A stretch of 64,000 bases of DNA from Mobula hypostoma (taxonomy: Eukaryota), in contig NC_086107.1 in NCBI RefSeq assembly GCF_963921235.1, positions 101,124,001 through 101,188,000 of the forward strand, written 5' to 3'. Within the stretch, counting starts at the first letter, position 1. Every line of letters starts with the position of its first letter. The notes under the pieces were generated by a model. That model searched no databases. It had not been told where the DNA came from and was given only the letters and a program-made list of their open reading frames with translations. The position numbers and the translations under genes are program-made. Of the stretch, positions 7,101 through 60,029 are shown one piece after another.

Positions 7101-7324
7101 CAGTGTCTGAGTGTGGATGAACGTGTGTGGCAGTGAAGGGAGAGACGCCCAACAGCTGCTATAGATCACAGTGTTGTAGCTGAGGTCTAACACTGCAGAA
7201 TTCTCAATTCCCTCAAGTAGCATAACATAGGACGCAAGTGGCAGCCACTCGAGGGTGCAGGGAATCTCACAGGTACCTTTTGTATTTGTGACTCCTGTGT
7301 GTTGGTGACTGCTGGTACTGAAAA

Positions 7325-7832
7325 CATCCATTTTAATTCCTCTTTCCATTCCCATTCCGATATGTCCATCCATGGCCTCCTCCACTGTCAGAATAGGGCC
7401 ACACTTAAGTTGGAGGAACAACACCTTAAATTCCGTTTGGGTAACTTCCAACCTGATAGCATGAACAGTAATGCCCCCCCCCCACTTCACCACTCCCCAT
7501 CCCCTGGTCCCTCTCTCATGTTATCTCCTTGTCTGCCCATCGCCTCCCTCTGGTGCTCCTCCCCCCCTCTTTTTTCTTTCTTCCATGGCCTTCCGTCTCT
7601 TTCCTAGCACTTTGCTTCATAACCTCCCCCTCTGAGTTTCGCCTATCCCCTGGCATTTCTCTGTCTCTCCTCTCCCCACCTTTCAAATCTTTCTCCAGTC
7701 TTGCCAAAGGTTTTGGCCCAAAATGTCAGCTGTGCTTTTTTTCCATAGACGCTGCCTGGCCCGCTGAGCTCCTCCAGCACTTTGTGTGTGTCGCTCGGAT
7801 TTCCAGCACCTGCAGATATTCTCTTGTTTGTG
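7325..7832 (+). mobile_element. Penelope-like element 3' fragment: GIY-YIG endonuclease C-terminus plus terminal repeat with decayed hammerhead
   Basis: ORF 7299..7607 contains HFNSSFHSHSDMSIHGLLHC...LEEQHLKFRLGNFQPDSMN, typical of the PLE endonuclease end. It is followed by the same terminal sequence as the dispersed short copies; decayed core at 7696-7732. Confidence 0.8.
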
Positions 7833-10800
7833 AACTACAGTATAGGTTTCACCCTGATCTCAATTCTAAAGATTGGCTTTATTTGTCGTGTGTATATCGA
7901 AATACAGTGAAATGCGTTGGTTTGCGTCAACAACCAACGCGCTCTGGGGATTGTGCTGGGGGGGGGGGGAGCCCACAAGTGTGGCTGTGCTTATGGCACC
8001 AGCGTAGCACGCTCACGGCTCACTCACCCTAACCCTCGCCATACAGTGAGGCAAGCGGGAGGAAACGGGGAGAACATACAAGCTCCTTACAGTAAAGCAG
8101 GGGGGATTGCACAACACTCGGTGATTGCTGGCTACTAAAGCGTTGCACTGACCGCTACGCCACCGTGCTGCCCACGAGCCATCTTCATGTACCTTTCCTA
8201 CTTTCTGTATCCTCCCAGAACAAACCCTTTTCCTATTAATCTGTAATTGTAATTTCTAGCTGAGTTCCTTTCGCCAACTCCTTCTTTTAGACTCATACTC
8301 CAAGGAACATTTTGTCTCCTATTGTGCTCTACCACCCATTTATGTACATTGAAATGTATTTGCCAATGGCCAATTCTTGCAGGCCTGTTTCAGGTTGAAA
8401 CATGTTAACTCAGCCAATTGAGAGGAATGAAATAAAAATGGCAATCCTCTGGTTTTCCCCAATGAGACAGTATTCCCAAAACTCCTTTATCCCGAAGATA
8501 ATATCAGCATTCCCAGAATTGTGCTCCCTGTAAGACACTTGAAGCATTCTGAGATTAAGATGTCATTTGTACAGCATGCATCAGGATAGTACAGAGTGAA
8601 ATAATAACTTATTTACAGCTTAACAAGCCACAGTAAGGGTTAGGGAGACCGCTAAAAGATGACAGAGTTTTCTCCCCTTCCTCGGCCCTCCGTTCCTGGA
8701 GGTGTTGACTGACAGTCATGATCCATAACTCTATGCTACCATTGAATCTGATACTCCGTTCGAGATAAGGGTCTTAAATTAGGCCGAGGCAATGACTGAC
8801 CTCAGTAAACTGGAACCTCCTGATAAAAGGGTGAGCTGTTAGGCTAACAGTAGCCAATTACAGACCCTGAGTCAAAAATTAGGCAACACTAAAGAATCAG
8901 AGACATCTCTTTTTCCCTTATTAGGGAGAGAGAGAGCCTGTGGTATTTCAAATTACTGGGTGAACAAGTAGTCTTTGGGGTACTGCAAGTCTGTGTCTTT
9001 ATTGATGCTTTGCTGCGTGCTTGAGTGCTTGGTAGAGGGTGCCGATGCTTTCTCGCTGGTGGGGGGGGGGGTTGTTGCTTTGCTGCTGCTTATGCATGGG
9101 AGGGGGAAGTTCCGGGGGGGGCTTTGAGGTTCTAGCATTTAGCTGTTATTCATTCATTGTTCGTGGATGCTTGCAAAGGAAAAGATTTCAAGATATATAT
9201 TGTGTACATTTCTCTGACATTAAGTGTACCTTTGAAGCCTATTGGTTGGCAACCAATTTAAAAAAAAATGTGATTGTTTAAAATACAGTGAAACCTTCGA
9301 AGGTGTTTCAGAGAAACATTCACAGTCACGTCTGTCATGTTATTGAATGAAGCGTCGTCCCCAATAACTGGAATCAGAGCACACACACACTTACGACTCA
9401 AAAATACCTTATTTTACTTACACACGAGGAGGACGGTGTGGCTCCTGTCACCACACTGAACTCTGAAGTCTGAACAAAGAGATGCCTTGCTTATCCAGAA
9501 TTGGCTAGCAGTTATGTATATTGATCATTTGGTAAACTCTGTAGGTTTGAATTCCTTACTTGCAAGATCAATCGGCATTCACAATAGAGGTGTTAAAAGT
9601 TAATAGAAACTATAAGCTTTGATGTTAGTAAAGCAATTTCCCCTTAGTTGGTGCTTGCACCTTGGATCACTATCTTGTCTTCAGACTCCTGGTGTGTAAG
9701 GAAAGGTGTGCTCTTTAAAGCCCTTTCTTGCCTGGGCTCTCAATCTGGAGCCTGTCATTGCCTGGATATTACATTAACCCTTTCCTTGCTGCAGCTTCCA
9801 CAGGTCACTCCATCAATATGAATGTGAGGGAAATGCAAGGATGTTGGCTTTGTGTGGGCACAGGGGATTAGTTTGGTTGGCCGTTTGATTAGTAATTTAA
9901 TTGGTTCAGCTATTCTATGTTCTATATTAAACAAAGGTTTATAAGTATCTTTAGCAAGCGCATAGTTTCAGAGCCTTTACTCATTCACTTAGTATGACAG
10001 AGGAGAAGGCCTTTCAGTCCATTGAATCTATGCCAGCTATCAGAGCAAACCCATTCTCAACCCGCCCTCTTAATTCCCTGTAACCTGTTCCCTTTAATAT
10101 TTCCATTATCTCTCCTATTGGCTATCTGCACTAATTAATTCAGTGTTATAGAACACTATAGCACAGGAACAGGCAGTTCAGCCCATCTTGTCCTTGCTGC
10201 CCTGGCCCTCTGCCTGGTCCCATCTATCTGCCCCTTGACCATAACCTTCCCACTCTCATCCGTGCACCAATCCAAACTTCTCTTAACATAGAAATCTACA
10301 GCACATTACAGGCCCTTTGGCCCACAATGTTGTGTCGACCATGTAACCTACTCTAGAAACTGCCTAGACTTACCCTTGCTTATAGCCCCCTATTTCTCTA
10401 AGCTCTGTGTACCTTTCTAAAAGTCTCTTAAAAGACCCTATTGTATCTGCCTCTATCACCTTCTGCCGGCAGTGCATTCCACGCACCCACCACTCTCTGT
10501 GTGGAAAAACTTACCCCCTCTGTACCTACTTCCAAGCACCTTAAAACTGTGCCCCCTCATGTTAGCCATTTCAGCCCTGGGGAAAAGCCTCTGGCTATCC
10601 ACATGATCAATGCCTCTCATCATCATCTACGCCTCTATCAGGTCACCTCTCATCCTCCGTCACTCCAAGGAGAAAAGACCAAGTTCACTCAACCAACTTA
10701 GGTGTTGCAATTGAACTTGTATGCACCACTTCACTTCTGCTGGCGGCTCGTCCCCACCTTCTGAATGAAGAAGTCCCCCCCCCCCCAGATTAAAGTCACT

Positions 10801-16379: not shown

Positions 16380-17900
16380 GTTCAAAGTTTAAAATTCAAA
16401 GTAAAATTTGCTATCAGAGGACGTACATGTCACCACATTCAACCCTGAGATTCTTTTCCAGTGGGCAGTCTTAGCAAATCTATAGAACAGTAACCTTAAA
16501 CGGGATCAATGAACTGTGCAAATGCAAATATAAATAAATAGCAATAAATAACAAGTACGAAATAACAAGATAAAGAGTCTTTAAAGTGAGACCGTCAGTT
16601 GTTAGAACATCAGAAGTAGAATGAGTATAGTTCTCCCTTTTGTTCGAGAGCCTGATGGTTGAGGGGTAGTAACTGTTCTTGAACCTGGTGGTGTGAGTCC
16701 TGAGGCTCCTGTACCTTCTACCTGATGGCAGCAGCGAGAAGAGAGCATGACTTGGGTGGTGAGGATCTTTGATGATGGATGCTGCTTTTCTACTGCAACA
16801 TTTCATGTAGATGTGCTCAATGGTTGGGAGGGTTTTACCCATGATGTACTGGGCCAAATCCACTACCTTTTGTAGGATTTTCAGCTCAAAGGCATTGGTG
16901 TTCCTGTATCAGGCCGTAACACAGCCGGTCAGCACACTTTCCACCACACATCTAGAGAAGTTTGCCAAGATTTTTGATGACATTCCAAACCTCTGCAGAC
17001 TCCTGAGGAAGTAGAGGTGCTGTCGTGCTTTCTTTGCGATTATATTTATATGATGGGTCCAGGACAGATCCTCTGAGATAGTGACACCCAGGAATTTAAA
17101 GTTACTGACCCTCTCCACCTCTGATCCTCCAATGAGTACTGGCTCATGAACCTCTAGTTTACCTCTCCTGAAGTCTACAATCAGTTCCTTGGTCTTGCTA
17201 AGCACACAGCTCTGTGGAGCCCCTGTGTTGATGGAGATCGTGGAGGAGGTGTTTTTGCCAATCTGAACTGACTGGGGTCTACAAGTGAGGAAAACCAGGA
17301 TCCAATTGCACAAGGGCATATTGAGGCCCAGGTCTTGGAGTTTACTGATTAGTTTTGAGGGATGATGGTGTTAAATGCCGAGCTGTAATCGATAAAGAGC
17401 ATTCTGATGTATGCATCTTGATTGTCCAGATGTTCTAGGGTTGTGTGAAAAGCCAATGAGATAGCATCTGCTGTAGACCTGTTGCTTTGGTAGGCAAATT
17501 GGAGCAGATCCAAGTCACTATTCAGACAGGAGGTGATAAGCTTCAACACCAGCCTCTCAAAACACTTCATCACTGTGGATGTGAGTACCACTGGGCGGTA
17601 GTCATTTAGACAGGTTACCACACTCTTCCTGGATACCGGTACGATTGAAGCCTACTTGAAGCAGATGGGTACCACACACTGCTGGAGTGAGGGATTGAAG
17701 ATATCCGTGATCAGCACAAGTCTTCAGTACTCAGCCAGGTACTCTGTCCGGACTGGATGCTTTCCTTGGATTCACTCTCTTGAAGGCAACCTTCACGTCA
17801 TCTTCAGATACTGAGACCAAAGGATCATCAGGAGACATGGGGTGCGCGATGGTCTCTCCTTATTGTGGTGGTCAAAGCGAGTATAGAAAGCATTGTGCTT
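16380..17900 (-). mobile_element. Rex1/Babar-type LINE, decayed RT with internal deletion
   Basis: [61 protein letters not shown]; the FADD region is lost at the CVLS|KTKEL junction near 17200. Confidence 0.85.
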
Positions 17901-19551: not shown

Positions 19552-21420
19552 TTTATGTCACAGTATGCAACCCCAAGGTTCGTTTTCTGTGGGTGTACTG
19601 AGTAAGTCCAAGAAACACAATAGAATCGATGAAAGACCGCGCCCAGCAGGATAGAGAAGCAACCAACATGCAAAAGACATCAAACTGTGCAAATACAAAG
19701 TAGAAAAATAATAATGATATTTATTGCTTATTTATTTATTGAGAACAGGAGATGAAAAGTTCTTGGAGTTCATTGATGGGGTGAGTGAAGTTACCCTCTC
19801 TATAATAACCATTCCTGGACCTGGTGGTGTAGGTCCTTGAGGCTCCTGTTCCTCCTTCCTGATGGCAGCAACGAGAAAAAAGCATGGCCTGGATGGTGGA
19901 GGTCCTCGATGATGGATGCTGCTTTCCTAGGAGGGTGCTCCGTGTAGATGTGCTCAGTGGTGGGAAGGGTTTGATGGACTGGGTTGTATTGACTACTTTT
20001 GTAGGATTTTCCATTGAAGGGCATTGGTGTCTCCATTCCAGGCTGTGATACAGCCAGTCGGTATACTCTCCACCGCACATCTATAGAAGTTTGTCAAAGT
20101 TTTAGATGTCATGCCGATTTTCGCAAAGTTCCATGGAAGTAGAGGGGCTGCCGTGCTTTCTTCATAACTGCACTTACTTGCTGGACAGATTCTCTGAAGT
20201 GACAACACCGAAGTATTTAAAGTTGCTGACCCTCTCCACCTCTGATTCCCCTGATGAAGACTGTCTCACCGACTTCCGGTTTCCTCCTCCTGAAATCATT
20301 AATCAGCTCCTTGGTCTCGCTGACACCGAGTGAGAGGCACCACTCAGCCAGATTTTCAATCCCCCTCCTATTTGCTGATTCATCACCACCTCTGATTCAG
20401 ATTAGGACAGTGGTGTTGTCAGCAAACTTAAATATGGTAGCAGAGCTGTGCTTAGCCTCGCAGTCATAGCTATAACGTGAGTAGAGCAGGGGGCTAGGCA
20501 CACAGCCTTGTGGTGCAACTGTGCAGACGGAAAGTGTGGAGGTGTTGTTGCCAGTCTGAACTGACTGGGGTCTGCAAGTGAGGAAATCAAGGATCCAATT
20601 GCACAAGGAGTTATTGAGGCCAAGGTCTTGAAGCTTATTGATTAGTTTTAAAGGGATGATAGTATTGAATGTTGAGCTGTAATTGATAAATAGCATCCTA
20701 CTGTATGCATCTTGCGACATGTTAAAGATCACAGTGAACACTCCAACCATTTGATTGACACAGGTCTTTAGTACTTGGCCAGGTACATGGTGTGGGCTGG
20801 ATGCCTTCCATGGATTCACCCTCCTGAAGGTTGTTCTGAAGTTGGCCGCAGAGACTGAAATCACAGGGTGATTGGAGGCTGTGGAGATTAGTGAAGGTTC
20901 CTACATATTTTGATGGTCAACGTGAGCATAGAAGGCATTGAGCTGATCAGGGAGTGAAGCCTTGTCATCACCTATGTTGTTTGGTTTCACTTTGTAAAAG
21001 GTAATAGCATTCGAGCCCTGCCACAGCTGTCAAGCATCCTTCAGTGTTTCAGGTTTGGTGCTGAATTGCCACTTCCTCTTACTTTTTACTTGGACGCCAG
21101 ACCTAAATGCCACTGATCTGACCCTCAGCACATTGTGCATCTCACCGTTCATCTTGGGCTTGTGGTTGGGGAAGACCCTGAATGATTTTGTGGGAACACA
21201 CTCATCTGCAACTGTTTTTATAAAGTCCGTGACAACTGTGATGTATTCATTCAGATCCTCTGATGTATACTTTAACACGGCCCAGTCCACCAATTCAAAG
21301 CAATGTGTAGCCGCTCCACTGCCTCCTGTGACCAGTTCTCTGTTTTACTTTCCTCTGAAGCGAACCTCATTGGCCTCTGCCTGTGTGCGGGTAGGAGAAG
21401 GACAGCCAAATGATCAGATC
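19552..21420 (-). mobile_element. Rex1/Babar-type LINE; its 3' tail is interrupted by the Tc1 element
   Basis: RT motifs PQGCVPSPLLYS and FKFADNTT, endonuclease end SDHLAVLLLP near 21390-21420; the tail continues at about 17998-18020. Confidence 0.85.
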
Positions 21421-39640: not shown

Positions 39641-41820
39641 GCACACTCAAACTTCCCATAACTCAACTACAAATCTCGAATCCAGGAACTAAGAGTACAA
39701 ACATTAGGCTAGCCACTGGCCTTTCTTTGTTGTACCTTGTAAGGAAATATGCAGTTTTCCATTCTAAAGGAGTGTTTCCTGAATCAGGAGGAGTTTGGAA
39801 GCTCAAGGCATCGTAATACATGTGCTTGCCTTCCTTGAGCCTTTTGATGAAAGCTCTCTGGTCTTGGTTGTGCCAGTTCTTAATCGCATTATTTTCTTCA
39901 CTGTATTTTTCGCACAATGGATTTTGTTGGCTCTATGTATTTGATTTTATATTACCTGGATTGGCTGGCATGTCTGCTTCACTGTGAATGCCCAAACGAA
40001 GTAGAGGCCTGCTTGGGAATAAAATGAAAGCCTGACCGCAGCCTGTCCAAACCTGGCCATCATGGTAAGTATTGCAACTTCAACATGCTATTCAGATGCC
40101 AATGATATTGCGCAAGTCATCTTGACCTGTCTGAAGTACAAAGCTGTGCCAATGTGGCCCAGACCGAACCAGAGTGTGCAACTGAACTTACCTGAGCTCA
40201 GCACTTACAGTGAGGTAGTCATGGTGTAACATTGAGTAGCTAACCATGATCTTCACCAACTGCTTTTGTTTCCAACAGCACTTGCAAAGTGCTGCAAATT
40301 CCTGTTTTCTTTGTGCTTTTATAATATGTGGATATCACAAGCATGTTTCTTTTCAATGCCCTCTTTCTATAACTTGTAATATCTTTCTAGTCACCTTTTG
40401 TTCATTGCATCTCTAAGCTTGAGTGAGGCTTCCTTCGACAGCAGGACCTCTTGCTCCTTGGGGCTAGGAACTGGTTCAGTAGTTAATGTGAATCAGTTTG
40501 TATCCTCAAGGAGAAAGAGGGAGTATTAACTGGTCCACATTCCCTATTGATCGTCTTTGGTTCTACCAATTAACAGATTTTGCATGGTTTCCATGGAAGT
40601 CTGGCATTGCGTTGAAGTTAGTTTTGCGCAAATTGAGACACTGAGTGGCAATTTCATGCTCTTCTCTTTAGAACGTTAGTTGTGTTCAATCATGACTACT
40701 GTTCAATACACGACTGGGCTATTAGCCAAGTCTGCCTCATCAGTAAATCTTAAATGGCCCATGTCCTTTGATTTAAGGACATATAGTTGCAGAAAACTCA
40801 CACCAGAAAATGTACTGCCTTCTGATAATCAGCTAACCTGTCTGTCCTAACATAATCAAAGTAACTTTCTACATTTTACCATTATGACAGGCTTGTCCAA
40901 CCTTGTATTTAAACATTCTACAGGAATCCTTTGTGTAACTCCCTTTGTTTTGCCGATGAAATCTCCACTGCCTGTTTGACCCTTATACCATCTCTCTTCA
41001 CTGAGCTGATCAAAGTTCAAAGTAAATTTATTATCAAAGTACATATATGTTACCACATACAGCCCTGAAATTCCTGTTCTTGTGGGCATTCATAGTATAT
41101 AGAAAGAAACACAGTAGGATCACTGAAACTTGGTGAGAGAGTGAGATTGAGCACCAGTGTGGGGCAGTTGCCAAGGACCGGACCAGGTTGGTCCACACTC
41201 CAGAACTCCAGTTGAGACCGGAAAAATGTACTTATCCAGGAGGCTCTTAAAAGACCCAATGCCAACTAACTGGTACGTCTTTGGACTGTGGGAGGAAACC
41301 CTTGCTGTCACAGGGTGAACGTACAAACTCCTTACAGGCAGTGGTGGGAATTGAACCCACACCGCCTGCATCGTAAACCGTTGAGCTGTCCACTATCCTG
41401 CCATGCCGTCTTAGCTTAAACATTAGACCTCGATGTCCTGTTCTTTAATTTGGCTTGTAGCATTTATTATTTTCTGAACAGCACCTCTGTCTACCTTTTA
41501 TCATGATGTGGCTTCCACTTCCCCCAGTAATGTTCTCTGATGGTCATCATCGTGGTACAAACCGTTAATCATGTAGGTTCACATTCCTACTCTCAGCACA
41601 TTGCATCTCACTGCGTTATTGATTCCCTTGCCCCGCCTCATTAGATTCCCCTTCCTTTTCCCAACTCCAAGAGCCCCGGTTTACTATTCAGCTCCCTCCT
41701 GACAGTCTATACTGTACCTCGCAGGCAGAAAGGACATTTTGCATAATAGTAAAAAAAAAGGCACAGAAAATGTTTCGGAAACACTCAGCAGGTCAGGCAG
41801 CATCTGCGGAAAGAGAAGCA

Positions 41821-41859
41821 GAATTAACGTTTCGGGTTAATGACCCTTCATCAGAGTTC
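41821..41859 (-). ncRNA. Hammerhead motif of a related PLE subfamily
   Basis: Minus strand GAACU-CUGAUGA-AGGGUcauuaACCC-GAAA-CGUU-AAUUC: intact core, 4-bp stem II, one mismatch in stem I. Confidence 0.6.
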
Positions 41860-42049
41860 CAGTTCTAAGAAAGCCGCCGTGTAATTTATTTCTCCCTCCA
41901 CAGGTACTGCCTCACCTGCTGAGTTACTATGCACAATGTTCTTTCTGCCTGTGAGGGTTGCCAACATTTTCCATTTTCTACACTTCCAGCATCTGGACTT
42001 TATTTTCAATCATTAACTGCATTTTGTGAGTTGGATATGGTCAGTGATA

Positions 42050-46120: not shown

Positions 46121-46767
46121 CAGCTTCGTGTCTGTTACAGGGGCTGAGCTCCTCGTTGGTCATTGTCCGGAGACTGACGGAGCAGAGTGTGGTACCTGTG
46201 CGCCCTCTCAACACTCGGACTTGAAACCATCCCCTGCAGGGAGCTTCTCCCTGCCAGAATCTCTGTATGGAACTACCATTTAGGCACGGTAACAGATCTA
46301 TAGCCCACACCAATCTTAATCACAGCTACACTCCCCAGTTCATTCCCGGTGATCCCAGATTTGACCTCCTCCACACTCTGCCGTCTCTGCATTTTGACCC
46401 TGTGATGACGCCTAACCTGTATTGCTTGAGCGGATCCTCTTCACGTTTCCCAGTCTGTTCCAAATTTCTCCTTTTGCTTCCTCCAATTTAATCCTTAACC
46501 CCGATGGAGCTTCCTGCAGACGGCACCCTGCATTGAAGCAGAGAGCCGAGAGGTGAGATGCTCAGCCCCAGCGCCGTTCATCTCCAGATCTCATTGCAGC
46601 CTTGGTCCAAGCACGGACCAAGATCCCCAGAAGTGGGGTAAGAGGGGCAAATCTGAACTCAGTGGGCATCACGGTGAGAGCTGTCCAGTGCGAGGCAAGG
46701 CTTTGCCAGTGGGCACCTACATCCTGTGGAGCAAATAGTCATAGTCATAGTCATACTTTATTGATCC

Positions 46768-46892
46768 CTGATGAAGGGTCTCGGCCCGAAATGTCGACTG
46801 TCCCTCTTCCTAGAGATGCTGCCTGGCCTGCTGCGTTCACCAGCAACTCTGATGTGTGTTGCTTGAATTTCCAGCATCTGCAGAATTCCTCG
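46768..46892 (+). mobile_element. PLE terminal-repeat copy nested in a Rex1/Babar tail
   Basis: Begins at the CTGATGA core; TGATCCC duplicated at 46762-46768 and 46893-46899. Confidence 0.85.
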
Positions 46893-48905: not shown

Positions 48906-49733
48906 TTTTTAGCATTGTTTCTGTGTTTAAGGGAAGTGAGTAAGGTTTGGACCCAGGGACAATGAAGGATCTGTTTGTCACTCAGCCTGGTGTGTGAGCT
49001 GGTGGTGGAGCTCTCTTGCCCCTGCTGCCCCTCTTCTTGGTCACTGTCGTCTCAGTGATCAGTATCACTGCAGAAGCCAGCCTTCAGTCAAGTGGATTCA
49101 CTCGCGGTGGTAACGAGGAGTGACTTGAGGCTCTGCAAAGGCTGGAGAGCATCCCAGCTGCAGTACCTGAACCCTGCACCAAGTGTACTTCTAGTCAAAG
49201 AACCAGAGCGTAAAAGGTCTAGGGTGAGAGGGAAGAGATTTACAAACGTTTATAATAGGAACCTTGGGGGCAATTTCTTCACCCAGAGGGTGAACGCAGC
49301 GAGCTGCTAGAGGAGGTGATTGAGGTATTTAAAAGGGTTTTTGAGCAGTATATGTTCATGGGTTCCCAAGGTTTTTTAGGCCATGGACACCTACCATTAA
49401 CCGAGGGTCCATGGAACCCAGGTTGAGATCCCCGGTTTTAGAGGGAGTTGGACAAAACACAGTCAAATGAGAGTTGCTTAGATGGGAATCTTGCATGGCA
49501 TGGGCCAGTTGGACCAATAGGCTGGCTTCTGTGCTGTGCGACACTGTGATTCTCACCCTCCCCTTTAATCACAACTGACCTTCCCGTGACACATCTTCCT
49601 CTGTGGTTCAAGGGCCAGGAGTCGCTGGGTTTGCAAAATGTCCAAGTTAGAAGTGCGTCACCAGCACGATTTGCTGTTGTCTGCAGATTGTTGGGCAGGA
49701 ACTGGCAGTAACGATCTCACGTTTTGTTTGTAG

Positions 49734-50286
49734 TTTAACAGACAGCAATAAGGAAAACACTTTCCGTGACGTGATCACCAGGAGGACCACAGGGAGACAG
49801 GAGGCGGCATCTGCAGAAAGGACGTGGGGGAGCCGCAGGGCAGATGGCCATGAGCAGCGTCTACCCGCGCACGACTGCGTGGAGCTGGAGCCCGTGCAGC
49901 AGCCGTGCGCACCAGAGCCCGCGGACTCGCGCGTGCAGGATCCCACACCGGCCAGTACACGCATCCCAGAGCCCGCGCTGCTGCGCGGACAGGACTCAGC
50001 CAGGGCGGACGAGCTGCAGCGCGACCAGGCGCAGCGGATCACCGAGCGGAGCAGGTGGTTCGAGTCCACGGCCCCCAGCGACGGCCCGAGGAAGGAGACG
50101 GACTGGAGCTTCGAGCCCATCCACATCCCCGAGGCCCTCAGCAAGGACATTGAGGTGAAGTGGCAGGAACTGGAGCGCATTCCTCTGCGGGACCACAAGC
50201 AGGTCCCCCTCGTCTGCGTGCGGCCTTCCCCCTCCAGGCAGAACGACAGCGGCACCTCGGCGACCACGGAGCGGCTGGAGAAGGAG
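49734..50286 (+). CDS. TRIOBP: TRIOBP large linker/coiled-coil exon (LTDSNKEN...ELQRDQAQRITERSRWFE...IEVKWQELERIPLR...ERLEKE)
   Basis: Acceptor gttttgtttgtAG, donor GAG|gtagga, 553 nt, phase 2/0. Same frame as ORF 49771..50466; CpG-rich; motif order as recalled for TRIOBP. Confidence 0.93.
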
Positions 50287-50829
50287 GTAGGAGAATTAGA
50301 CCCAATTTTCTGTGTGGCTGTTTGTCCTTGGCCCCAGTCTCCTCCACCTGATCAATGTCTGTTGGCTTCTTACTGTCACATGAACCAATATACAGTGAAA
50401 CTTTTTGTTTTACCTGGCATCCATACAGATCGTTCCAAACAACACAGGACCAGTAACAGAATGTAGACTATGTTGCTACAGTTACAGAAAGTTGCAATAC
50501 ACGTAGACAAATAAGATGCAAGCACTCAGCAAGGCAGTTGGAGGGATAAAGAGTTCATCCTTAACATACAAGGGCATTAGGAAGCTGCCCATGAACCTGG
50601 TGGAGTGTGTTTTCAAGCTTTTGTGTCTGCCTGATGGAGGGGGTGGGCGGCAGAGAAAAGAGAATGTCTGGGGTGGGATTACGCTGGCTTCTTTCCCAAG
50701 GCAGTGGGAAGTGTAGACGGATTCAATGATAATAGATAACATGTTCTATTAGGTAACTTGGTCAGCATGGACAAGTTGGGCGGAAGGGCCTGTTTCTGTA
50801 CTCTATGACTCTATGATGTTTCCTCAGTA

Positions 50830-51730
50830 TTAATCACCAAGCCTCAAAACCTGGGCCTCTGTTCTTCCGTCTGCAACTGGATCCTCAACTTCATTTTCAG
50901 GAGACCACAGTCAGTGTGGACGTTTAATAACACCTCCTCGCTGAGAATCTACACAGGCATACCTCAAAGATGTGTGCTTTAGCCCACTGCTCTACTCTCT
51001 CTACGTGTCTGGGCACAAATCAAACACAATCTGTAAAGCTGCCGATGACATCACTATTGTTGGCAGATGCTCAGACGGCGATGAGGCGGTGTGCAGGGCT
51101 GAGGTAGGTCGGCTGGTTAAGTGGTGACACAGTAACAACCTCGCAGTCAGTGTCAGCAAGACCAAGGAACAGATTGTGGGCTTCAGGGAGGGGAGGTTGG
51201 GAGAACACACACACCCATCCTCATTGAGGGGTTAATGGTGGAAAGGGCGAGCATCTTCAAGTTCCTGGGCATCAGCATCGTGGAGGATCTACCCTGGGCA
51301 CAACACATTGATGCAATCACAAAGAAGGCTCTACTTCATTGGGAGTTTGAGGAGATCTGGTGTGTCACCAAAGACTCTTGCAAATTTCTGTGGATGTACA
51401 GTGGAGAGCATTCTGACTGGTTGCATCAAGGCCTGCTTTGGAGCTGCCAATGCACAGGAACGCAAGAGGCTGCTGAGTGTTGTAGACTCCTCCAGCTCCA
51501 CCGCCACCACAGCATTCCCCACCATCAAGGACATCTTCAAGAGGTGGCAGTTCTAGAAGGTGGCATCCATCATAAAGGACCCTCACCATCCATGACATGC
51601 CCTCCTCTCAGTACCTCAGTCAGGGCCGAGGTACAAGACTTTGAAGACCCACACTCAATGCATTAGGAACAGCTTCTTCCCCATCACCATCAGATTTCTG
51701 AACATTCAATGAATCCATGAACACCACCCC
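50830..51730 (+). mobile_element. Rex1/Babar-type LINE fragment
   Basis: RT 3' motifs: FKFLGI, LYFIGSLRR, CTVESILTGCI. Confidence 0.75.
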
Positions 51731-51743
51731 ATTATTCCTTTTT

Positions 51744-52220
51744 AAAATTTTTTTTGGCTCAGCATAACGAACGTTTCAATTTCCAGATACACTTACATTT
51801 ACATTTCTTCCCCTCACAGATATCAGCTATCAGAACACTACCATCAAAATATAGACATCACCACAACATCCTATACAAAAACCTTTATCAGTTTAGCAGA
51901 TAAGTTTACATCTACATACTGCAGAAAAGGTTGCCATGTTTTATGAAAACTATTTGTTTCAGTGTGCACCATACATGTCAAAAAGTCCAAAGGAATGTGT
52001 TCCATGATTAATTTACGCCAATCAAAAAGTCCAGGGGCCTTATCGGATGTCTAACAAAGTAAAATGTTCTTCCTCACACAAAAAGTCAGAATGTTAAGAA
52101 GTTTTTTCTGACGTGCATTAATAATATGACTGCTGGGTAAGCCTAAGAGAAAAGACGCTGGGTCCAGTTCAAGCTCCATCTTCAGAATCTTTTCCATTTC
52201 ACCCAAAATATCACTCCAGT
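51744..52220 (-). mobile_element. 5'-truncated L1-clade LINE (ORF2 C-terminus plus poly-A)
   Basis: YWSDILGEMEKIL...LLNILTFCVRKNILL*...FHKTWQPFLQY on the minus strand; T tract at the left end; TSD ATTATTCCTTTTT at 51731-51743 and 52221-52233. Confidence 0.8.
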
Positions 52221-52934
52221 ATTATTCCTTTTTTTAAACAATTATTTTGTAATTTTATGACTTTGCACTGACCTTTTGCTGCAAAACAAATTTCACTCCC
52301 ATGTTATTCAGTAACAATAAACCTGATTCTGATTATTACGTTCTCCTTTCCGCCATCTTGTTTCATCAGAGACCTTCTTCCTGACTACATGGTAAATGTT
52401 TTCCAGTTCTGATGAAAGATCATTGCCCTACCCTAAAGAATTAGCACAGGTTCTCACTCCACAGATGCTGCTGAGTGTCTCCTGCATTTTCTGCTTGATC
52501 TTGGTGCATTTTTCAATTGCTGCCCTCCTTGAACCCAGGAGTCTGCTGGGGTCTGTAAAGCACAGCCTGTAGTGGGATTGGGGGCTGTGTATGTGCACAG
52601 GAGGAATGGGGCTTGCTTCACTGTTGTTGCTTGCCTCCAGCACACCCTTGGGTGTGTTGGTTGTTAACCTAAATGACATATTTCACACTCGATACACATG
52701 TGATAAATAAATCTAAATTTGCAGCCTTCCCTTAAATGCATCTCCATATTTCTCCCTTCACTCCCACATCTTCACTCTGGCTTTCGACAAACAACAAATT
52801 ACACTGACCAAGTTTTATTAATCTCAGATATTTTTTCCCTCTTTACCTTGGGACGTGGCATCTGGCTGCTTCCTCTCGCAGGCACACAGGTACCAATGTT
52901 GGAGCTATCTAGGAGAGCACAACTTAATCAGGTG

Positions 52935-53317
52935 CCAGGGTGGAGATACGTTTCTACCAAAGGAGGTGTAAGGCACTCCTTCCCTTGGCTAGCCTGGAGA
53001 TCACCCTTGGTCAAGGTGTAGCACCTGCTGAACTCCCCCCCCCCACCCCGATCAGGGTCACATGAAACCATGGAAGCAGGTGGTGGATGGTCATATGAAC
53101 AGCCAGCACATCACAAGACCTGGTTATGCAACCTCTGATGCCAGGCAGATAATCTCTGAAGAGTATTGATAATGGCTGGGGTCACCTGTCTTGTAAAGAC
53201 ACTGTCCAGAAAAAGGCAATGGTATACCACTTCTGTCGAAAAATATGCCAAGAACAATTGTGGTCAAGACCATGATCGTTCATGTCATATGACACGGCAT
53301 GTAATGATTGAATGAAC
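52935..53317 (+). mobile_element. Probable RTE-related SINE-like element
   Basis: Contains aggcaatgg..accacttctg...tgccaagaa, resembling RTE/BovB-related SINE segments, and a short simple-repeat tail. Confidence 0.4.
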
Positions 53318-54123
53318 ACACAACTTAAGTGAAAATCATTAAAAAAACAGGAGATTCTGGAAACCTAAATGAAAATAGAAATTGCTGGAAATATTCAGCA
53401 GATCAAGTCGCATGTATTATTGGAAGAGAAACAGATAGAACACTTACCCCTTTTCATCAGAACTGATCACAATTGTAAGGAAGGGCCTTCACACAGAAAT
53501 GTTAACTCTGCTTCCCTCTCTGCTTTACTTTCTCTGCTGCTTTAAGCTGTGAAAGAAGTCAGAAAGTGGGAAATGCAGCCCAGCGCACTGCACTGAACAG
53601 AGTAGTGAATGGCCAGGCCTTTTGGTGATTAAAGTTGAGGAAGAGATATTGACCAGGCTACTGGGGGAGATGCCTGTCCTTCAGGTGGAGCTGTGGAGTC
53701 TCTCTTATGTCCATCCAAAAAAGACAGTTGAGTCAGGAATCAGAGTGATACAGCACAAAAACAGGCTCTTTGGCCCATCTCACCCATGCCAATCAAGGTT
53801 CCTTAGCCCCACTTGTACATACCCATCTAAACCTTTCCTATCCACATACTTATTCAAATGTCTTTTAGCACCTGCTTGAAGCACTTTCCCTGGCAGCTCA
53901 TTCCATGTACACACTACGCACTGCACGAAAAAAGTTGCCCCTCCAATCCCTTTTAAATCCTTTCCCCTTCACCTTGTCTCTGGCCTCACACTGTGAAGAA
54001 AATACCTCTTCAGAGGGAGTGGGGGTTTTGATTCCCTCTCCCAATGGGGGGAGAAAAAGAGTGCGTGCATTCAGGAGGTCACAGACTCACTCTGCCGCGC
54101 CCCACAAATGACTGAACTTTGCA

Positions 54124-54312
54124 AACACGAGGAATTCTGCAGATGCTGGAAATTCAAGCAACACACATCAAAGTTGCTGGTGAACGCAGCAGGCCAGGCA
54201 GCATCTCTAGGAAGAGGTGCAGTTGACATCTCGGGCCAAGACCCTTCGTGACTGTACCTCTTCCTAGAGATGCTGCCTGGCCTGCTGCGTTCACCAGCAA
54301 CTTTGATGTGTG
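54124..54312. mobile_element. Fold-back PLE terminal-repeat insertion
   Basis: Inverted arms joined at 54249/54250; 16-bp TSD ATGAC(T/C)GAACTTTGCA at 54108-54123 and 54313-54328. Confidence 0.88.
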
Positions 54313-56018
54313 ATGACCGAACTTTGCATACAGGATCTTGGCGACACTCTCAGTGGGGTACTGTCTCAACCGGAAGATGTTCTGTCTTTACCGCTGCACT
54401 GGGAGCATCCGCAGGCATCTTTCTGTTGCAGATCTCTGGAATTTGGGCTTGGACGCGTGGCATCAAAGCAGGAGCATTCCCATCCTCAGACAAAGGTCCA
54501 TCTCCGAGGATCGTAGTGGAGAGGCTTGCGAGTTCCTGAGGTCCCGAGAGAGATGGCGTCTGGAGTTTACCCATCTCGCGTTTAGCTTCTGGTAGGACCA
54601 CCCGTTGCAGTATGGTCAAGGAGGAGGTTTCAGACAAAGAATGATCCAACTAAGACCTCGTCGGTGGAGCTGGCAGAAGATGGGGACACATCACAACAGC
54701 AGTGGACGGCTGCAGGAGTAAAGGGTCCCCAGTCATCTTGCATTCCATGTCACTGGACCCTGACCCTGATCTGTCAAGGACCATGTGGTGGCGGCTGCCT
54801 GTTTGTCGGTTTCCCCCCATTAAACAAGCAAACACTTGCATTCTCCATTATGGGAATCCACCCTAACGTCCCGGATTTGACAACCCTTTCAGAGAACATC
54901 ATACTCGACTTGAGTGATCACATCAATATTAAGACTGAGGTCAGAGAGACTCTTTCAGATGATGAAGACAGAGAAGGACGTCAGAAGAACAGAGTGTGAA
55001 GCAATAATAACGATCCACTTCCTTGGTCTCAGTTCTGCACAGGAGAGACAAGAAACATCGTACGGCCTCTGCATCTACTGATGGGCGTTGTAAATTAGTG
55101 TCAGTGATGTCTGCACTTCAGGCGTGAAAACCGCAATTGCACATCCAGAGAAGGTGTGAAGAAAATAAATGAGGCTGGCCAAATTAGGAGCCCAAAAAAA
55201 AGCCAGAAACCGCGCCTCCCTCCCCATCAACCTCACGGAAGCACTCCAGTGTGGTGTCTGCACTCAGCTAGGACCTGGCCTCTTCCACTGGTGTTGCACT
55301 TCCCTATTCGAGCGGTGTAACGACAGGCTGGATTGTGCTGTCAGTATCAGTAACAAGGGTCAGTCCACTTACATCTAGCTATTGTAGAGGTTAATTCTTC
55401 TCACTGGGACTTTGTTACCTCTAGACTGAGTGCTGTGTCCATGCTGACCGTCAAGCACCCATTTTTTTACATTAACCTGACCCTAACCCATTTCATCAAC
55501 CCCCTCCCCACCACTCGCTTAAACACACTTGGGTCAATTTACAGTGTCCAGTTAACCTAACGACCGGCACCTTCCTGGGATGTGAGAGGAAAACTGGAAG
55601 ACTGGAGATTGGCAGAGAGAAGGTGCAAACTCCACGTGGACAGCCTGTGTCCTCTACAGTGATGCTGTGAAAAGTCTTATCTCTGGGGTCTTAATGCTTC
55701 AGACACAGGGAGCACTGCCAGCTGGGGACAACTTCTTCAGCATTACAGGAGAGCAACAGAATGCTACTCTAAGTTATTGGCTCGTGTCTCTGAAGCGGGC
55801 CGAGAACCCATGGCCTTGCTCAGAGGGTACAGTATAACCTACTGGTCCCCAATAGCTCATAACTGGTCCCTGTAAATGTCAGTCAGGCCAGTCATAGTTC
55901 AAGACACTGAATATGAAAGACAAACAACAGGAATTCTGCAGATGCTGGAAATTCAAGCAACACACATCAAAGTTGCTGGTGAACGCAGCAGGCCAGGCAG
56001 CATCTGTAGGAAGAGGTG

Positions 56019-56056
56019 CAGTCGACGTTTCAGGCCGAGACCCTTCGTCAGGACTA
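56019..56056 (-). ncRNA. Minimal type I hammerhead ribozyme motif, antisense twin of 56078-56115
   Basis: Exact reverse complement within the 103-bp inverted repeat. Confidence 0.75.
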
Positions 56057-56077
56057 ACTGAAGGAAGCTTCATCAGT

Positions 56078-56115
56078 TAGTCCTGACGAAGGGTCTCGGC
56101 CTGAAACGTCGACTG
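56078..56115 (+). ncRNA. Minimal type I hammerhead ribozyme motif (PLE-associated)
   Basis: UAGUC-CUGACGA-AGG gucucgg CCU-GAAA-CGUC^GACUG. Stem I UAGUC/GACUG, stem II AGG/CCU, intact core, stem III reduced to palindromic ACGU; predicted cut after 56110. Confidence 0.75.
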
Positions 56116-56325
56116 CACCTCTTCCTACAGATGCTGCCTGGCCTGCTGCGTTCACCAGCAACTTTGATGTGTGTTATATGAAAGACAATGTTGTTTTGAT
56201 TTTCACTTGAAATACTTTTAAAAATTAATTGGATGGGTAGATGGATTGGAAGGGTTTAGAGGGATATTGGCCAGATGCTGCCGTGTGTTTGGTCAAATGG
56301 AGAATTCCTGTGCTCTTTGACTCCA

Positions 56326-56889
56326 CACTCAGTAGCCACTTTACTAGACACAGGAGATACATAATCCTGAGTGTATTTCTGCATGCTCATGATCTTCTGT
56401 TGCTGTAGCCCATCCACTTCAAGGTTCGATGTGTTGTGTGTTCGGAGATGCTCTTCCGCACACCACTGTTGATATGTGTGATTATCTGAGTTACTGTCAC
56501 CTTCCTGTCAGCTTGAACCAGTCTGGCCATTCCCCCCGACCGCTCACATTAACAAGGCGTTTGCACCCACAGAACTGCCCCTCACTGGTTTTTTTTGTTT
56601 TTTCACACCATTCTCTATAAACTCTAAAGACTTGTGTGCGAGAAAGCCCAGAGGATCAGCAGTTTCTGAGATGCTCAGACCATCCCATCTGGGACCAATA
56701 ATCATTCCACAGTCAAAGTCACTTAGATTACATCTCTTCCCCATTCTGATGTTTGGTCTGAACAATAACTGAACCTCTTGATCTTGCCTGCATGCTTTTA
56801 TTCATTGAGTTGCTGCCACGTGATTGGCTGATTAGATATTTGCATTAATGAGCAGGCGGTCTGGTAACTAATAAAGTGGCCACTGAGTG
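56326..56889 (-). mobile_element. Internally deleted Tc1 element
   Basis: 22-bp TIRs CACTCAGT(A/G)GCCACTTTA(C/T)TAG; N-terminal HTH remnant MGKRCNLSDFDCGMIIG...LSISETAD (ORF 56544..56765). Confidence 0.85.
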
Positions 56890-57156
56890 TATGATGCCCC
56901 CACCTCCGCACACCCCCCCATCTGATTCCAACTGTCGTTCAACACTCTTTTCTTCTCTAATGGCCCCTATAATGGGTACTCCCAATGAATGCATGCACAC
57001 GACCTCACTCAGTAGCGTAGTGGTTAGCGCAGTGCTGTGCAGTACCAGTGACTAGGGGTTCAATTCCCGCCGCTGCCCACAAGGAGTTTGTATGTTCTCC
57101 CTGTGACTATATGGTTTCCTCCAGGGGCTTTGGTTTCCTTCCATAGTCCAAAGAAA

Positions 57157-57463
57157 AGTGTACAGCCGGCATTTCAGGCCGAAACCCTTCGGCGGGACTG
57201 ACGAGAAAAGGCTGAGGATTAGATTTAAAAGATGGGGGGAGGGGGAGAGAGAAACACAAGGTGATAGGTGAAACCTATCTCCATCCCCTCCCTCCACCAT
57301 TCTGCTTCTCAGCTTTTTTTTCTCCAGTCCTGCTGAAGGGTCTCGGCCCGAAATGTCTGCTTTACTTTTTTCCATGGATGCTGCCTGGCCTGCTGAGTTC
57401 CTCCAGCATTTTGTCTGTGTTGCTCTGGATTTCCAGCATCTGCAGATTATCCCTTGTTTGTGA
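57157..57463. mobile_element. Fold-back PLE terminal-repeat pair with mutated hammerhead cores
   Basis: Minus arm 57157-57275; plus arm includes cagtcCTGCTGAagggtctcggcccGAAAtgtc. Confidence 0.75.
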
Positions 57464-58693
57464 TTAAATTACAGGAGCAGTTGGGCAGACTAGGACTTCA
57501 TTACTCGGTGTTTACGAAACTAAGGGGTGATCTTATAGAGGTATATAAAATCATGAGGGGCATAGATAGGGTGAACGAACTCAGTCTTTTTGCCAGGGCT
57601 GGGGAATGAAGGAATAATGACCTGGATCTGGGCCATCCCCTCCAAATATCCAGACCTGCATCTCGGTTTTTTTGTACTACCTTACTTTCCATTTTTATAT
57701 TTTCTATTTATGATTTATAATTTTAATTTTTAATATTTACTATCGATTTGTAATCCAGAGAGCGGGAAGCGCAGAATCAATTATCGCTATGATGATTGTT
57801 CATTCTAGTATCAATTGTTTGGCAACAATGAAGTATAAAGTATAATGGACATAGGTTCAAGGTGAGAAGGGAGAGATTTAATAAGAATCTGAGGGAGAAC
57901 ATTCCCGTAGAGCGTACTATGTGTATGGAATGAACTGCCCGAGGAGTTGGGGCAGGTACAGTAAGGACATTTAAAAGAAATTTCAGACAGGTACGTAGAT
58001 GGATGAGGTTTAGAGGGATATGGGCCCAAAGCAGGCACATGGGATGGACTGAAGGGCTTGTTTCTGTGCTGTATGAATCTATATTGGCACATTAAAACCA
58101 ATTTATTTTTGCTGTGGTGCAGTGGGGACCAGTAAATTGATGACAACTGTGTTCGAGCCTCCTGTAGAGATCCTAAAATTGACCCAGCTTCAGATGCTGC
58201 CAGTTATAAACAACAGGCATGGCTCCTGTTTCCTGTGTTAGTGGGGTTGTGAACTACTGGGAAGGATTCATTGTGTTCCTCACTTCACTTATTTATTTAT
58301 TTGTTTATTTATTTATGCATTCATTGAGATACATCACAGAATAGACACTGCCCAGTAATCCGGGCCTAATCACGGGACAACCTGATGATACAACTGGGTT
58401 GTGAAACTGTGAAAGCCGTGCTGTCACAGGGAGAAGGTACAAACTCCTTACAGGCAGTGGTGGGAATTGAACCTGGGTCGCCTGTACTGTAAAGCGCTGT
58501 GCTAACCACTATGCTGCCGTGCCTTAACTACAACTTTGGAAGCAGAAGGCTGCTGTTCCAGCCCTCAGTCTCGTTCACCGCTCGCTGTGGCAAATGCCAA
58601 TCCTGCCTTTCAGCCCCTGCCTCGGTTTCTTCTCACTTTGAAATTGATTCTCAGATTCTGCTAGGAAGTCTGTACAAGTCCTAGAAAACCATA

Positions 58694-59535
58694 CAGGCCG
58701 TTCCCGTGTAAGGAATGGGTTCTGTTTCTACAGAGGTGGATAAGATGATTTAATTTATTAAGTCAGAAAGACATGAGGAAAAGCAGTCACTTGAGAGGGT
58801 GCAGAGGAGATTTACAAGGATGTTGCCTGGATTGGGGAGCATGCCTTATTGAGAATACATTGAGTGAACTCGGCCTTTTCTCCTTGGAGCGATGGAGGAT
58901 GAGAGGTGACCTGATAGAGGTGTATAAGATGATGAGAGGCATTGATCGTGTGAATAGTCAGAGGCTTTTTCCCAGGGCTGAAATGGTTGCCACAAGAGGA
59001 CACAGGTTTAAGGTGCTGGAGAGTAGGTACAGAGGAGATGTCACTGGTAAGTTTTTTCACTCAGAGAGTGGTGAGTGCGTGGAATGGGCTGCCGGCAACG
59101 GTGGTGGAGGCGGATACAATAGGGTCTTTTAAGAGACTTTTAGAAAAGTACATGGAGCTTAGTGAAATAGAGGGCTAGAGTTAAGCCTAGGAATTTCTAA
59201 GGTAGGGACATGTTCGGCACTACTCTGTGGGCCGAAGGGCCTGTATTGTGCTGTAGGTTTTCTATGTTTCTATGACAGCAGGGGTTCTTTTTAAGCCGTG
59301 GACCCCCCGGATGGGAACCCCCACTCTAGTGACAACACCTCCACTGTATTGTAATGAAATGTATCAAAAGAGCATCAGACCGATGAGAAAGACTGATTAC
59401 TGAAAGTGGTGGGAGACATGAAACAATGTAGTCTGGCTATCTGTGGGATCAAATGTACACATGAACATTTGGGATTTCATTCATATGTAGGGGTATCCAT
59501 GAGCTGGGTGTGTTGTGTAACCCAGGGACGATCTG
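58694..59535. mobile_element. Old Tigger-like DNA element split by CR1 and hAT MITE insertions
   Basis: TA-flanked imperfect TIRs caggccgttcccgtgtaa / taacccagggacgatctg. Confidence 0.4.
58790..59275 (+). mobile_element. CR1/HER1-type LINE 3' end
   Basis: LGLFSLERWRMRGDLIEVYK...TRGHRFKV; (TTCTATG)-type tail. Confidence 0.85.
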
Positions 59536-59682
59536 TAAGGTTGAGCACACAACTAGCTGAAGGAACTCAGTGGCATCTCTAGAGGAGAATAAGCAGATGA
59601 CATTTCAGGGCCCTCATCAGAATTCAGCAGTTTACTATCTCTCTTCAAGGGTTTGAAGGCTATCTTTTCCCTCAAATTTCAG

Positions 59683-59823
59683 ATCTCCACCCTAAATCAA
59701 CAACTGGATGAAACCAGGAAAGAGCTAGAAACTTTCCGGGAGCAGAGTTTTCAGCTGCAGGGGCAGCTAAACGCATCCGAGGACCTGAAAAAGCAGACGG
59801 CTCCTAAAGGCTTCATCTCTCAG
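59683..59823 (+). CDS. TRIOBP: TRIOBP coiled-coil exon (ISTLNQQLDETRKELE...APKGFISQ)
   Basis: Acceptor ctcaaatttcAG, donor CAG|gtaggg, 141 nt, phase 0/0; ends in a PxG(F/Y)ISQ motif. Confidence 0.88.
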
Positions 59824-60029
59824 GTAGGGGGCTCGCCACCGAGCTGGGAAAGGCTGCGTCCCTTTGCAGACCGGGCAGCGGGGTCAGTAACGGCCAGATT
59901 CGGTCCACGCCTGTGAACCTGTGTTTTCCCCGTCTCCTGCGGCTGAACCCGGCGCAAAATGTGTAACCCCCACACATGAGAGGTAACTCTCAGTTCCAAG
60001 CCACGAGGTCCAGCGTTAAGGAGGGAATC

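Follow-up and report, generated by a model that had tools for sequence, protein, structure and literature searches.

A hairpin insertion in a TRIOBP intron of Mobula hypostoma as a probable 5′-truncated, head-to-head copy of a Neptune-type Penelope-like element

Endonuclease-positive (EN+) Penelope-like elements (PLEs) are described as inserting, as a standard, as a unit that has an inverted 5′-truncated copy and, on one side, a tail of 30-40 bp (PMC8557442, PMC3846280), and the layout of inverted pLTRs, one-sided tail and target-site duplication (TSD) has already been published for this group (PMC8557442, PMC3846280, PMC4209133). The minimal hammerhead ribozymes of metazoan PLEs are reported not to cut as monomers and to cut weakly as dimers (PMC4209133; dimer cleavage is also covered in the review PMC6765202), and dual minimal hammerheads on opposite strands, ~100-700 bp apart, have been reported in PLEs (PMC4209133). 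Self-priming has been proposed for the inverted layout (PMC3846280). In vitro, a PLE protein nicks and extends both strands, two reverse transcriptase (RT) start sites bound the tail and uncut RNA is the main template (PMC11167929); the main text of that paper, which deals with the anole element PAc, leaves inverted insertions aside. Two questions are presented as open in PMC8557442 and PMC11167929: by what route head-to-head insertions of PLEs arise, and whether the hammerheads of these elements cleave in vivo. The locus described below belongs to a large set of truncated copies with this published layout and matters little alone; the tens of thousands of near-identical termini found in the same genome open both questions to tests by simple counts, of the longer arm in each pair, of private variants present in both arms and of any accumulation of 5′ ends at the cut site.

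The window analysed here is a stretch of 64,000 nucleotides of Mobula hypostoma DNA (contig NC_086107.1, positions 101,124,001-101,188,000 of the forward strand), to which all coordinates without a locus label refer. The hairpin insertion at 55911-56188 is bounded by a left and a right TSD of 13 bp (55911-55923 and 56176-56188, plus strand), found identical by repeat comparison; the last 3 nt of the left TSD also belong to the parent element in the alignment of tailed arms, which makes this boundary ambiguous by 3 nt. Inward of it lies a 35-nt tail of parent sequence (55924-55958, minus strand), confined to the left arm and continuous with the parent in locus L031, followed by the left arm itself (55959-56061, minus strand), which terminus comparison with L031 identifies as the element terminus (pLTR), antisense to TRIOBP. 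The 11-nt centre (56062-56072) comprises 7 nt of extra left-arm parent sequence and, where a short palindrome lies, a joint of 4 nt; the right arm (56073-56175, plus strand), by arm alignment the identical terminus, is sense to TRIOBP and lacks the tail. An earlier note on this DNA had described the 103-bp perfect inverted arms, the 11-nt spacer and the 13-bp TSD, all of whose coordinates were re-derived exactly; the one-sided 35-nt extension was absent from its description. The fold computed for the whole element (-230.1 kcal/mol, z = -29.5) was equalled by none of 200 shuffles. In the Rfam search, mir-5429 was the top weak match (53.4 bits, cut-off 80), owing to the hairpin shape only.

The placement of the insertion within TRIOBP, also put forward earlier, was borne out, as exons encoding the ray TRIOBP protein lie on both sides of it on the plus strand, at 49726-50301 and 59671-59826, and delimit an intron at 50302-59670 (plus strand; approximate limits taken from tblastn exon ends). 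Seven TRIOBP exons were mapped on the plus strand between 29800 and 62958. The exon at 49726-50301 matched TRIOBP-family proteins of rays and sharks, the best match (97%) being labelled Mobula hypostoma; this homolog search supplied the name TRIOBP, and Pfam and PDB searches with the same exon yielded no identification.

Each arm carries a minimal type-I hammerhead motif, read from the sequence and found by a descriptor: the sense copy at 56078-56115 (plus strand, predicted cut after 56110) and the antisense copy at 56019-56056 (minus strand, predicted cut between 56024 and 56023). The plus-strand motif is made up of stem I (56078-56082 with 56111-56115), the core CUGACGA (56083-56089) followed by an additional A (56090), stem II (56091-56102) and GAAA (56103-56106), with an ACGU palindrome replacing stem III. 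A hammerhead on each strand had been claimed before, and with the core, stems I and II and the palindrome all present, and the descriptor giving exactly these two sites in the window, the claim stands. The same descriptor found seven sites in random genome totalling 160 kb and none in any of five shuffles of 224 kb; the Rfam hammerhead model gave no match at its gathering score and was absent among 21 weak matches. The architecture, with a palindrome in place of stem III, appears to be that of the minimal dimer-type hammerhead proposed earlier, the behaviour as dimers being taken from PMC4209133.

Conservation was scored in an alignment of 20 rows (the window copy, one close copy and 18 older copies, one fragment being left out), and bears on a condition named in the earlier note as one that would count against it, a core no more conserved than the flanks, which was not borne out. 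Mean column conservation was 0.94 in the core, 0.89 in GAAA and 0.82-0.89 in the stems, against 0.49 and 0.59 in the two flanks and 0.45 at the free position N7. Of the stem cells, 84.9% were able to pair, compared with 16-45% when the stems were slid; stem covariation was not above shuffles, 37-347 of 500 of which reached the observed value. When a single arm was folded, the ribozyme fold was not the minimum and was no better than in shuffles (z -0.2 to +1.1), the active fold being computed at -7.0 kcal/mol, and no significant stem-loop was found at the tail (z -0.4 to -1.2). A diverged relative at 41791-41871 (minus strand), with the same ribozyme core and other stem I and loop II sequences, probably represents another PLE family.

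A genome search with the left half of the element, in which 40 of 239 candidates were scored, gave 60 matches, the 40 full-length ones being 97-100% identical, and several of the 30 loci fetched run past the centre into common sequence. L031 holds the 145-nt terminus of the window element at 97-99% identity, adjoining RT and GIY-YIG frames. Its 832-aa frame matched RT PF00078 (E 6.8e-6, 26.4 bits; curated cut-off 29.6) and L031:6837-8132 matched GIY-YIG PF01541 (E 2.8e-4, 21.6 bits; curated cut-off 22.6), with the pLTR lying downstream of the GIY-YIG frame at 8417-8561. The terminus is present both upstream and downstream of the 832-aa RT frame, and the pLTR contains a hammerhead by motif scan. 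As a whole, L031:3206-8568 is a 5.4-kb head-to-head insertion, in which a near-complete tail-less unit is inverted against a 1.7-kb truncated tailed unit, the two being 98.4% identical over their overlap. Since the terminus adjoins the RT and GIY-YIG frames in L031, the arm is, as judged from the sequence, the pLTR of a coding, endonuclease-positive PLE, and the tail is parent sequence that follows the pLTR. The linker that separates RT from EN in the L031 protein reads C-x4-C-x2-C, and a CX2-5CxxC linker at this position is given as a feature of Neptune, Nematis and Naiad elements (PMC8557442); by its Cys linker the parent would be of Neptune type. Among the best 101 matches to the RT-thumb/EN protein, 97 were without an internal stop and seven lay in open frames longer than 1000 aa. 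Thus the Penelope-like origin suggested before the present analysis was confirmed by the link of arm terminus to RT and GIY-YIG frames, and the accompanying proposal of a separate non-coding, retrozyme-like derivative fell, the arms being the terminus of a coding element and the joint differing from locus to locus. We conclude, with a probability of about 0.9, that the window insertion is a dead-on-arrival, extremely 5′-truncated head-to-head insertion of an abundant EN+ Neptune-type PLE of rays. Elsewhere in the window, a reading-frame fragment at 7221-7607 resembles by eye what we take to be the end of a PLE endonuclease, and fragments at 16480-17370 and 20397-20900 look by eye like what are presumably pieces of a LINE reverse transcriptase.

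The family is abundant. The exact 34-nt ribozyme was counted 37,833 times in the genome with T at the variable site and 5,621 times with C, and 16 random 10-kb regions contained 17 hits, seven of them at 89.7% identity or more. With T in 87% of exact copies, the earlier statement that most other copies carry C does not hold for the window's subfamily, and the T variant was rejected as evidence for a common template of the two arms; the common source itself was upheld by other markers, as detailed below. A genome pattern search for ribozyme 5′ stems placed back to back no more than 12 nt apart retrieved 177 loci (control, 0). Among the first 50 of these, 37 different centres were counted by eye; the window's own centre was not among them, and some centres recurred up to four times. 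Among the first 100 exact-ribozyme matches, inspected by eye, we found eight head-to-head pairs within 1 kb, with spacings of 40-826 nt, no tail-to-tail pair and one direct pair; head-to-head pairs with coding arms were L017, L023 and L031. The window element is the short end of this continuum of head-to-head insertions.

Further copies lie in the same window. A second fold-back of the family, 1.8 kb upstream at 54108-54335, has its tail on the left arm and a 16-bp TSD with one mismatch, and the start of its short arm coincides exactly with the ribozyme cut site. An older-subfamily fold-back of ~80% identity at approximately 57121-57474 has arms that differ at the T/C site and are separated by ~120 nt of purine/pyrimidine-rich sequence, and a single non-inverted copy (94%) at 46767-46890, whose ends show a short direct repeat, sits inside another repeat.

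The fold-backs share several regularities. All 32 pairs (window and loci) had the tail on one arm and not on the other, among them all 15 of a pattern-picked set, the first 15 of the 177 loci, chosen by centre pattern alone. Tailed ends fell at terminus positions 140-152 in 35/35 cases and tail-less ends at 95-116 in 31/35, and clusters of loose contig ends before 55921 and 55956 correspond to these two end classes. With one mismatch allowed, the TSD measured 12-16 bp in 28 of 30 pairs. The arms were compared at markers after two pairs with less than 40 nt of overlap had been dropped: a three-state marker agreed in 28/28 pairs (33.5% when shuffled) and four non-CpG markers in 98 of 102 cells (57.6% when shuffled), four cells differing between arms, and in neither case were values as high reached in 10,000 shuffles. 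Several loci have rare variants common to both arms, and 4 of 30 pairs show no arm differences at all. By comparison, the three-state marker disagreed by eye in two of 12 head-to-head pairs lying up to 2.2 kb apart among the matches listed. Because marker agreement lies so far above that of the shuffles, we read both arms of a fold-back as coming from one source; the agreement could also reflect later gene conversion, or successive waves each dominated by a single subfamily. Three loci (L004, L052 and L055), all members of one subfamily, have the same non-CpG arm difference, C on the tailed and T on the tail-less arm, which may be the trace of a source element with two differing pLTRs. The 11-nt centre of L003 differs from that at 56062-56072 by a single base, its TSD and arm end being different; the joint in L003 and the window resembles a short stretch of the arm and may have been locally templated.

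Two accounts of how such insertions form were weighed. In the one we favour, the GIY-YIG/RT protein of the element would nick both target strands, 13 nt apart, and each target 3′-OH would prime a cDNA on uncut element RNA. One cDNA would start at the outer and the other at the inner RT start site, ~35 nt apart, yielding tailed and tail-less ends; both would stop just beyond the ribozyme, and a short palindromic microhomology would serve to join them. The head-to-head geometry would yield the second ribozyme as a by-product. In the other account a single cDNA folds at a short palindrome, copies itself, stops ~35 nt short of its start and joins the second target end, with later deletions blurring the centre. 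Such a snap-back explains the identical arms directly, accounts for palindromic centres, of which that of L012 is perfect with zero gap, and offers a simple explanation of the strict one-tail asymmetry. Self-priming from a tailed cDNA would, however, never leave the tailed arm the shorter at the centre, as a copy cannot exceed its template. In the 15 pattern-picked loci the longer arm at the centre was the tail-less one in seven cases, the tailed one in seven and neither in one; in L026 the tail-less arm is longer by 72 nt, and in L031 it has ~2 kb of extra sequence, including the RT, that is missing from the tailed arm. Across all 35 pairs, 20 of which are the window or loci fetched with a tailed query, the tailed arm was longer in 22, the tail-less arm in 11 and the two were equal in two, a distribution that speaks for snap-back. 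With either arm equally often the longer in the pattern-picked set (7:7:1), two primers fit better than self-priming, which would require an extra deletion for every longer tail-less arm; later asymmetric deletion at the centre of the palindrome could nevertheless randomise which arm is longer and so weaken this test.

On balance, the genome patterns tip us slightly towards two cDNAs, one per target strand and joined by microhomology, at the window locus, and leave snap-back as a tentative second choice. That the fold-backs of the family at large record two-primer PLE integration, from RNA of one source element and from two start sites ~35 nt apart, we put at an even chance. A search of open-access full texts found no two-primer model for PLEs. 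If true, this step would unite inverted pLTR, one-sided tail and TSD, tie them to the start sites seen in vitro with the anole element and replace the idea of self-priming or of an antisense template.

A different possibility is that the palindrome is a non-coding, self-propagating unit of retrozyme- or SINE-like kind, transcribed and moved whole by enzymes of the parent. Non-autonomous PLE derivatives exist (bioRxiv 10.64898/2026.07.22.740005), and the near-identity of the L003 centre to that of the window and the recurrence of some centres would be in keeping with it. We nonetheless regard it as improbable, in view of the 37 distinct centres among the first 50 loci, of head-to-head spacings that are continuous from 40 nt to kilobases and take in coding sequence, and of outer ends that fall into the two end classes of the parent, where a palindrome moved as such should have one freely truncated end. 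Furthermore, the window locus has no head-to-tail ribozyme tandem, and its ribozyme is predicted to be sequestered in the hairpin. Head-to-tail terminus pairs were seen at L034:4790-5209 and L033:9054-9307, with same-strand hammerheads ~275 and 110 nt apart; these, and not the window copy, could fold as dimers, and they resemble retrozyme seeds.

To judge the reality and age of the insertion, contigs of 4 of 23 sequencing runs were compared with the locus under a bridging rule of 31 nt. In run X1, which may stem from the very sample used for the assembly, one contig joined the unique left flank to 20 nt of the tail and a second joined 21 nt of the right arm to the unique right flank, both with 0 differences and both with element stretches shorter than the rule. 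A contig of run X5, which bears another species label, covers 56154-56412, a stretch made up of 22 right-arm nt, the TSD and flank, with three differences, all in the flank; short of the 31-nt rule as it is, it suggests that the insertion may predate a species split. 'Young', as the element had been called, therefore holds only loosely, a contig with another species label carrying the right-arm end and TSD. No empty site was seen among the joints listed for contigs of the four runs, a listing dominated by repeats. The whole element was spanned by no listed contig, as would be expected if the palindrome were an assembly artefact arising from read-level fold-back; yet the asymmetric tail and perfect 13-bp TSD, the support of run X1 for both borders between flank and element (over 20 and 21 nt, and maybe from the assembly's own sample) and the occurrence of an equal layout with different TSDs at many loci make such an artefact extremely unlikely.

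In the predicted fold of a 500-nt intron piece the arms pair with probabilities of 0.93-1.0, and the stems of the sense ribozyme reach at most 2e-47 (stem I) and 2e-20 (stem II). The antisense arm is transcribed first and, in the predicted folds, has already captured the ribozyme when the transcript reaches 10 nt beyond the cut. Within TRIOBP pre-mRNA, the two arms would accordingly form a 103-bp duplex with the ribozyme locked and cleavage not expected, a prediction in agreement with the earlier suggestion that the sense ribozyme is locked by its own antisense copy. Traces of cleavage were sought in the genomic copies, 68,876 of which read intact through the cut site. Copies beginning exactly at the cut site numbered 235, against 41 and 64 at two neighbouring positions, in a count that required three foreign bases upstream and could detect roughly a fifth of such starts. 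For 70 of 100 listed cut-site starts the upstream letters match, by eye, the element's own antisense arm, and microhomology can explain most of the excess.

A perfect 103-bp duplex, possibly common to a second species label, could also be taken to mean that the hairpin has been retained because, as double-stranded RNA in the intron, it regulates TRIOBP through editing, through an effect on splicing or as a source of small RNA. Short head-to-head pairs are, however, common, with eight within 200 nt counted by eye among the first 100 read-through matches, in ~4 Mb of one contig; the pairs without arm differences (4/30) indicate that perfect arms need only youth, and no evidence of selection was found. 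We consider such retention highly improbable. Many ray introns likely hold perfect 100-bp duplexes, which would be a load on the handling of double-stranded RNA.

MITEs and fold-back DNA transposons have symmetric terminal inverted repeats and a fixed short TSD, and were ruled out by the one-sided tail and variable TSD. In LINE-1 twin priming, both target strands prime cDNA, which generates an inversion inside TSDs; there the cDNAs copy different parts of the RNA, whereas here they would copy the same stretch, from start sites ~35 nt apart. Animal non-LTR retrozymes (bioRxiv 10.64898/2026.07.22.740005; PMC7229834) are, like the window element, short and non-coding, with a type-I hammerhead and PLE pLTR ancestry. 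They are described as head-to-tail tandems with a ribozyme per unit (bioRxiv 10.64898/2026.07.22.740005), whereas the window holds a single head-to-head pair whose ribozyme is predicted to be unable to fold; a retrozyme was ruled out by this single pair, the distinct centres and the continuum into coding sequence.

Among the PLEs themselves, a search of the open-access literature gave no description of this ray family. The Anolis carolinensis Poseidon element PAc (PMC11167929) has, in the same way, two end classes one tail-length apart and insertions that run through an uncut ribozyme, and differs in belonging to the Poseidon clade, without the Cys linker. The minimal type-I hammerheads of metazoan PLEs (PMC4209133) likewise have no stem III, palindromic positions 15.2-16.2, an extra base after the core and a 5-bp stem I; the window motifs differ in their short stem II of 3-4 bp and in lying only ~60 nt apart, against ~100-700 bp for the dual motifs of that paper. 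The TSD of 13 bp (12-16 bp in the family) compares with 8-10 bp in rotifer PLE examples. Finally, the EN+ PLE insertion unit (PMC8557442, PMC3846280) has in common with the window locus the head-to-head pLTRs, the single tail, the palindromic joint, the TSD and the hammerhead inside the pLTR, and with its parent the RT, the Cys linker and the C-terminal GIY-YIG domain; the difference is that in the window both copies are reduced to the pLTR alone.
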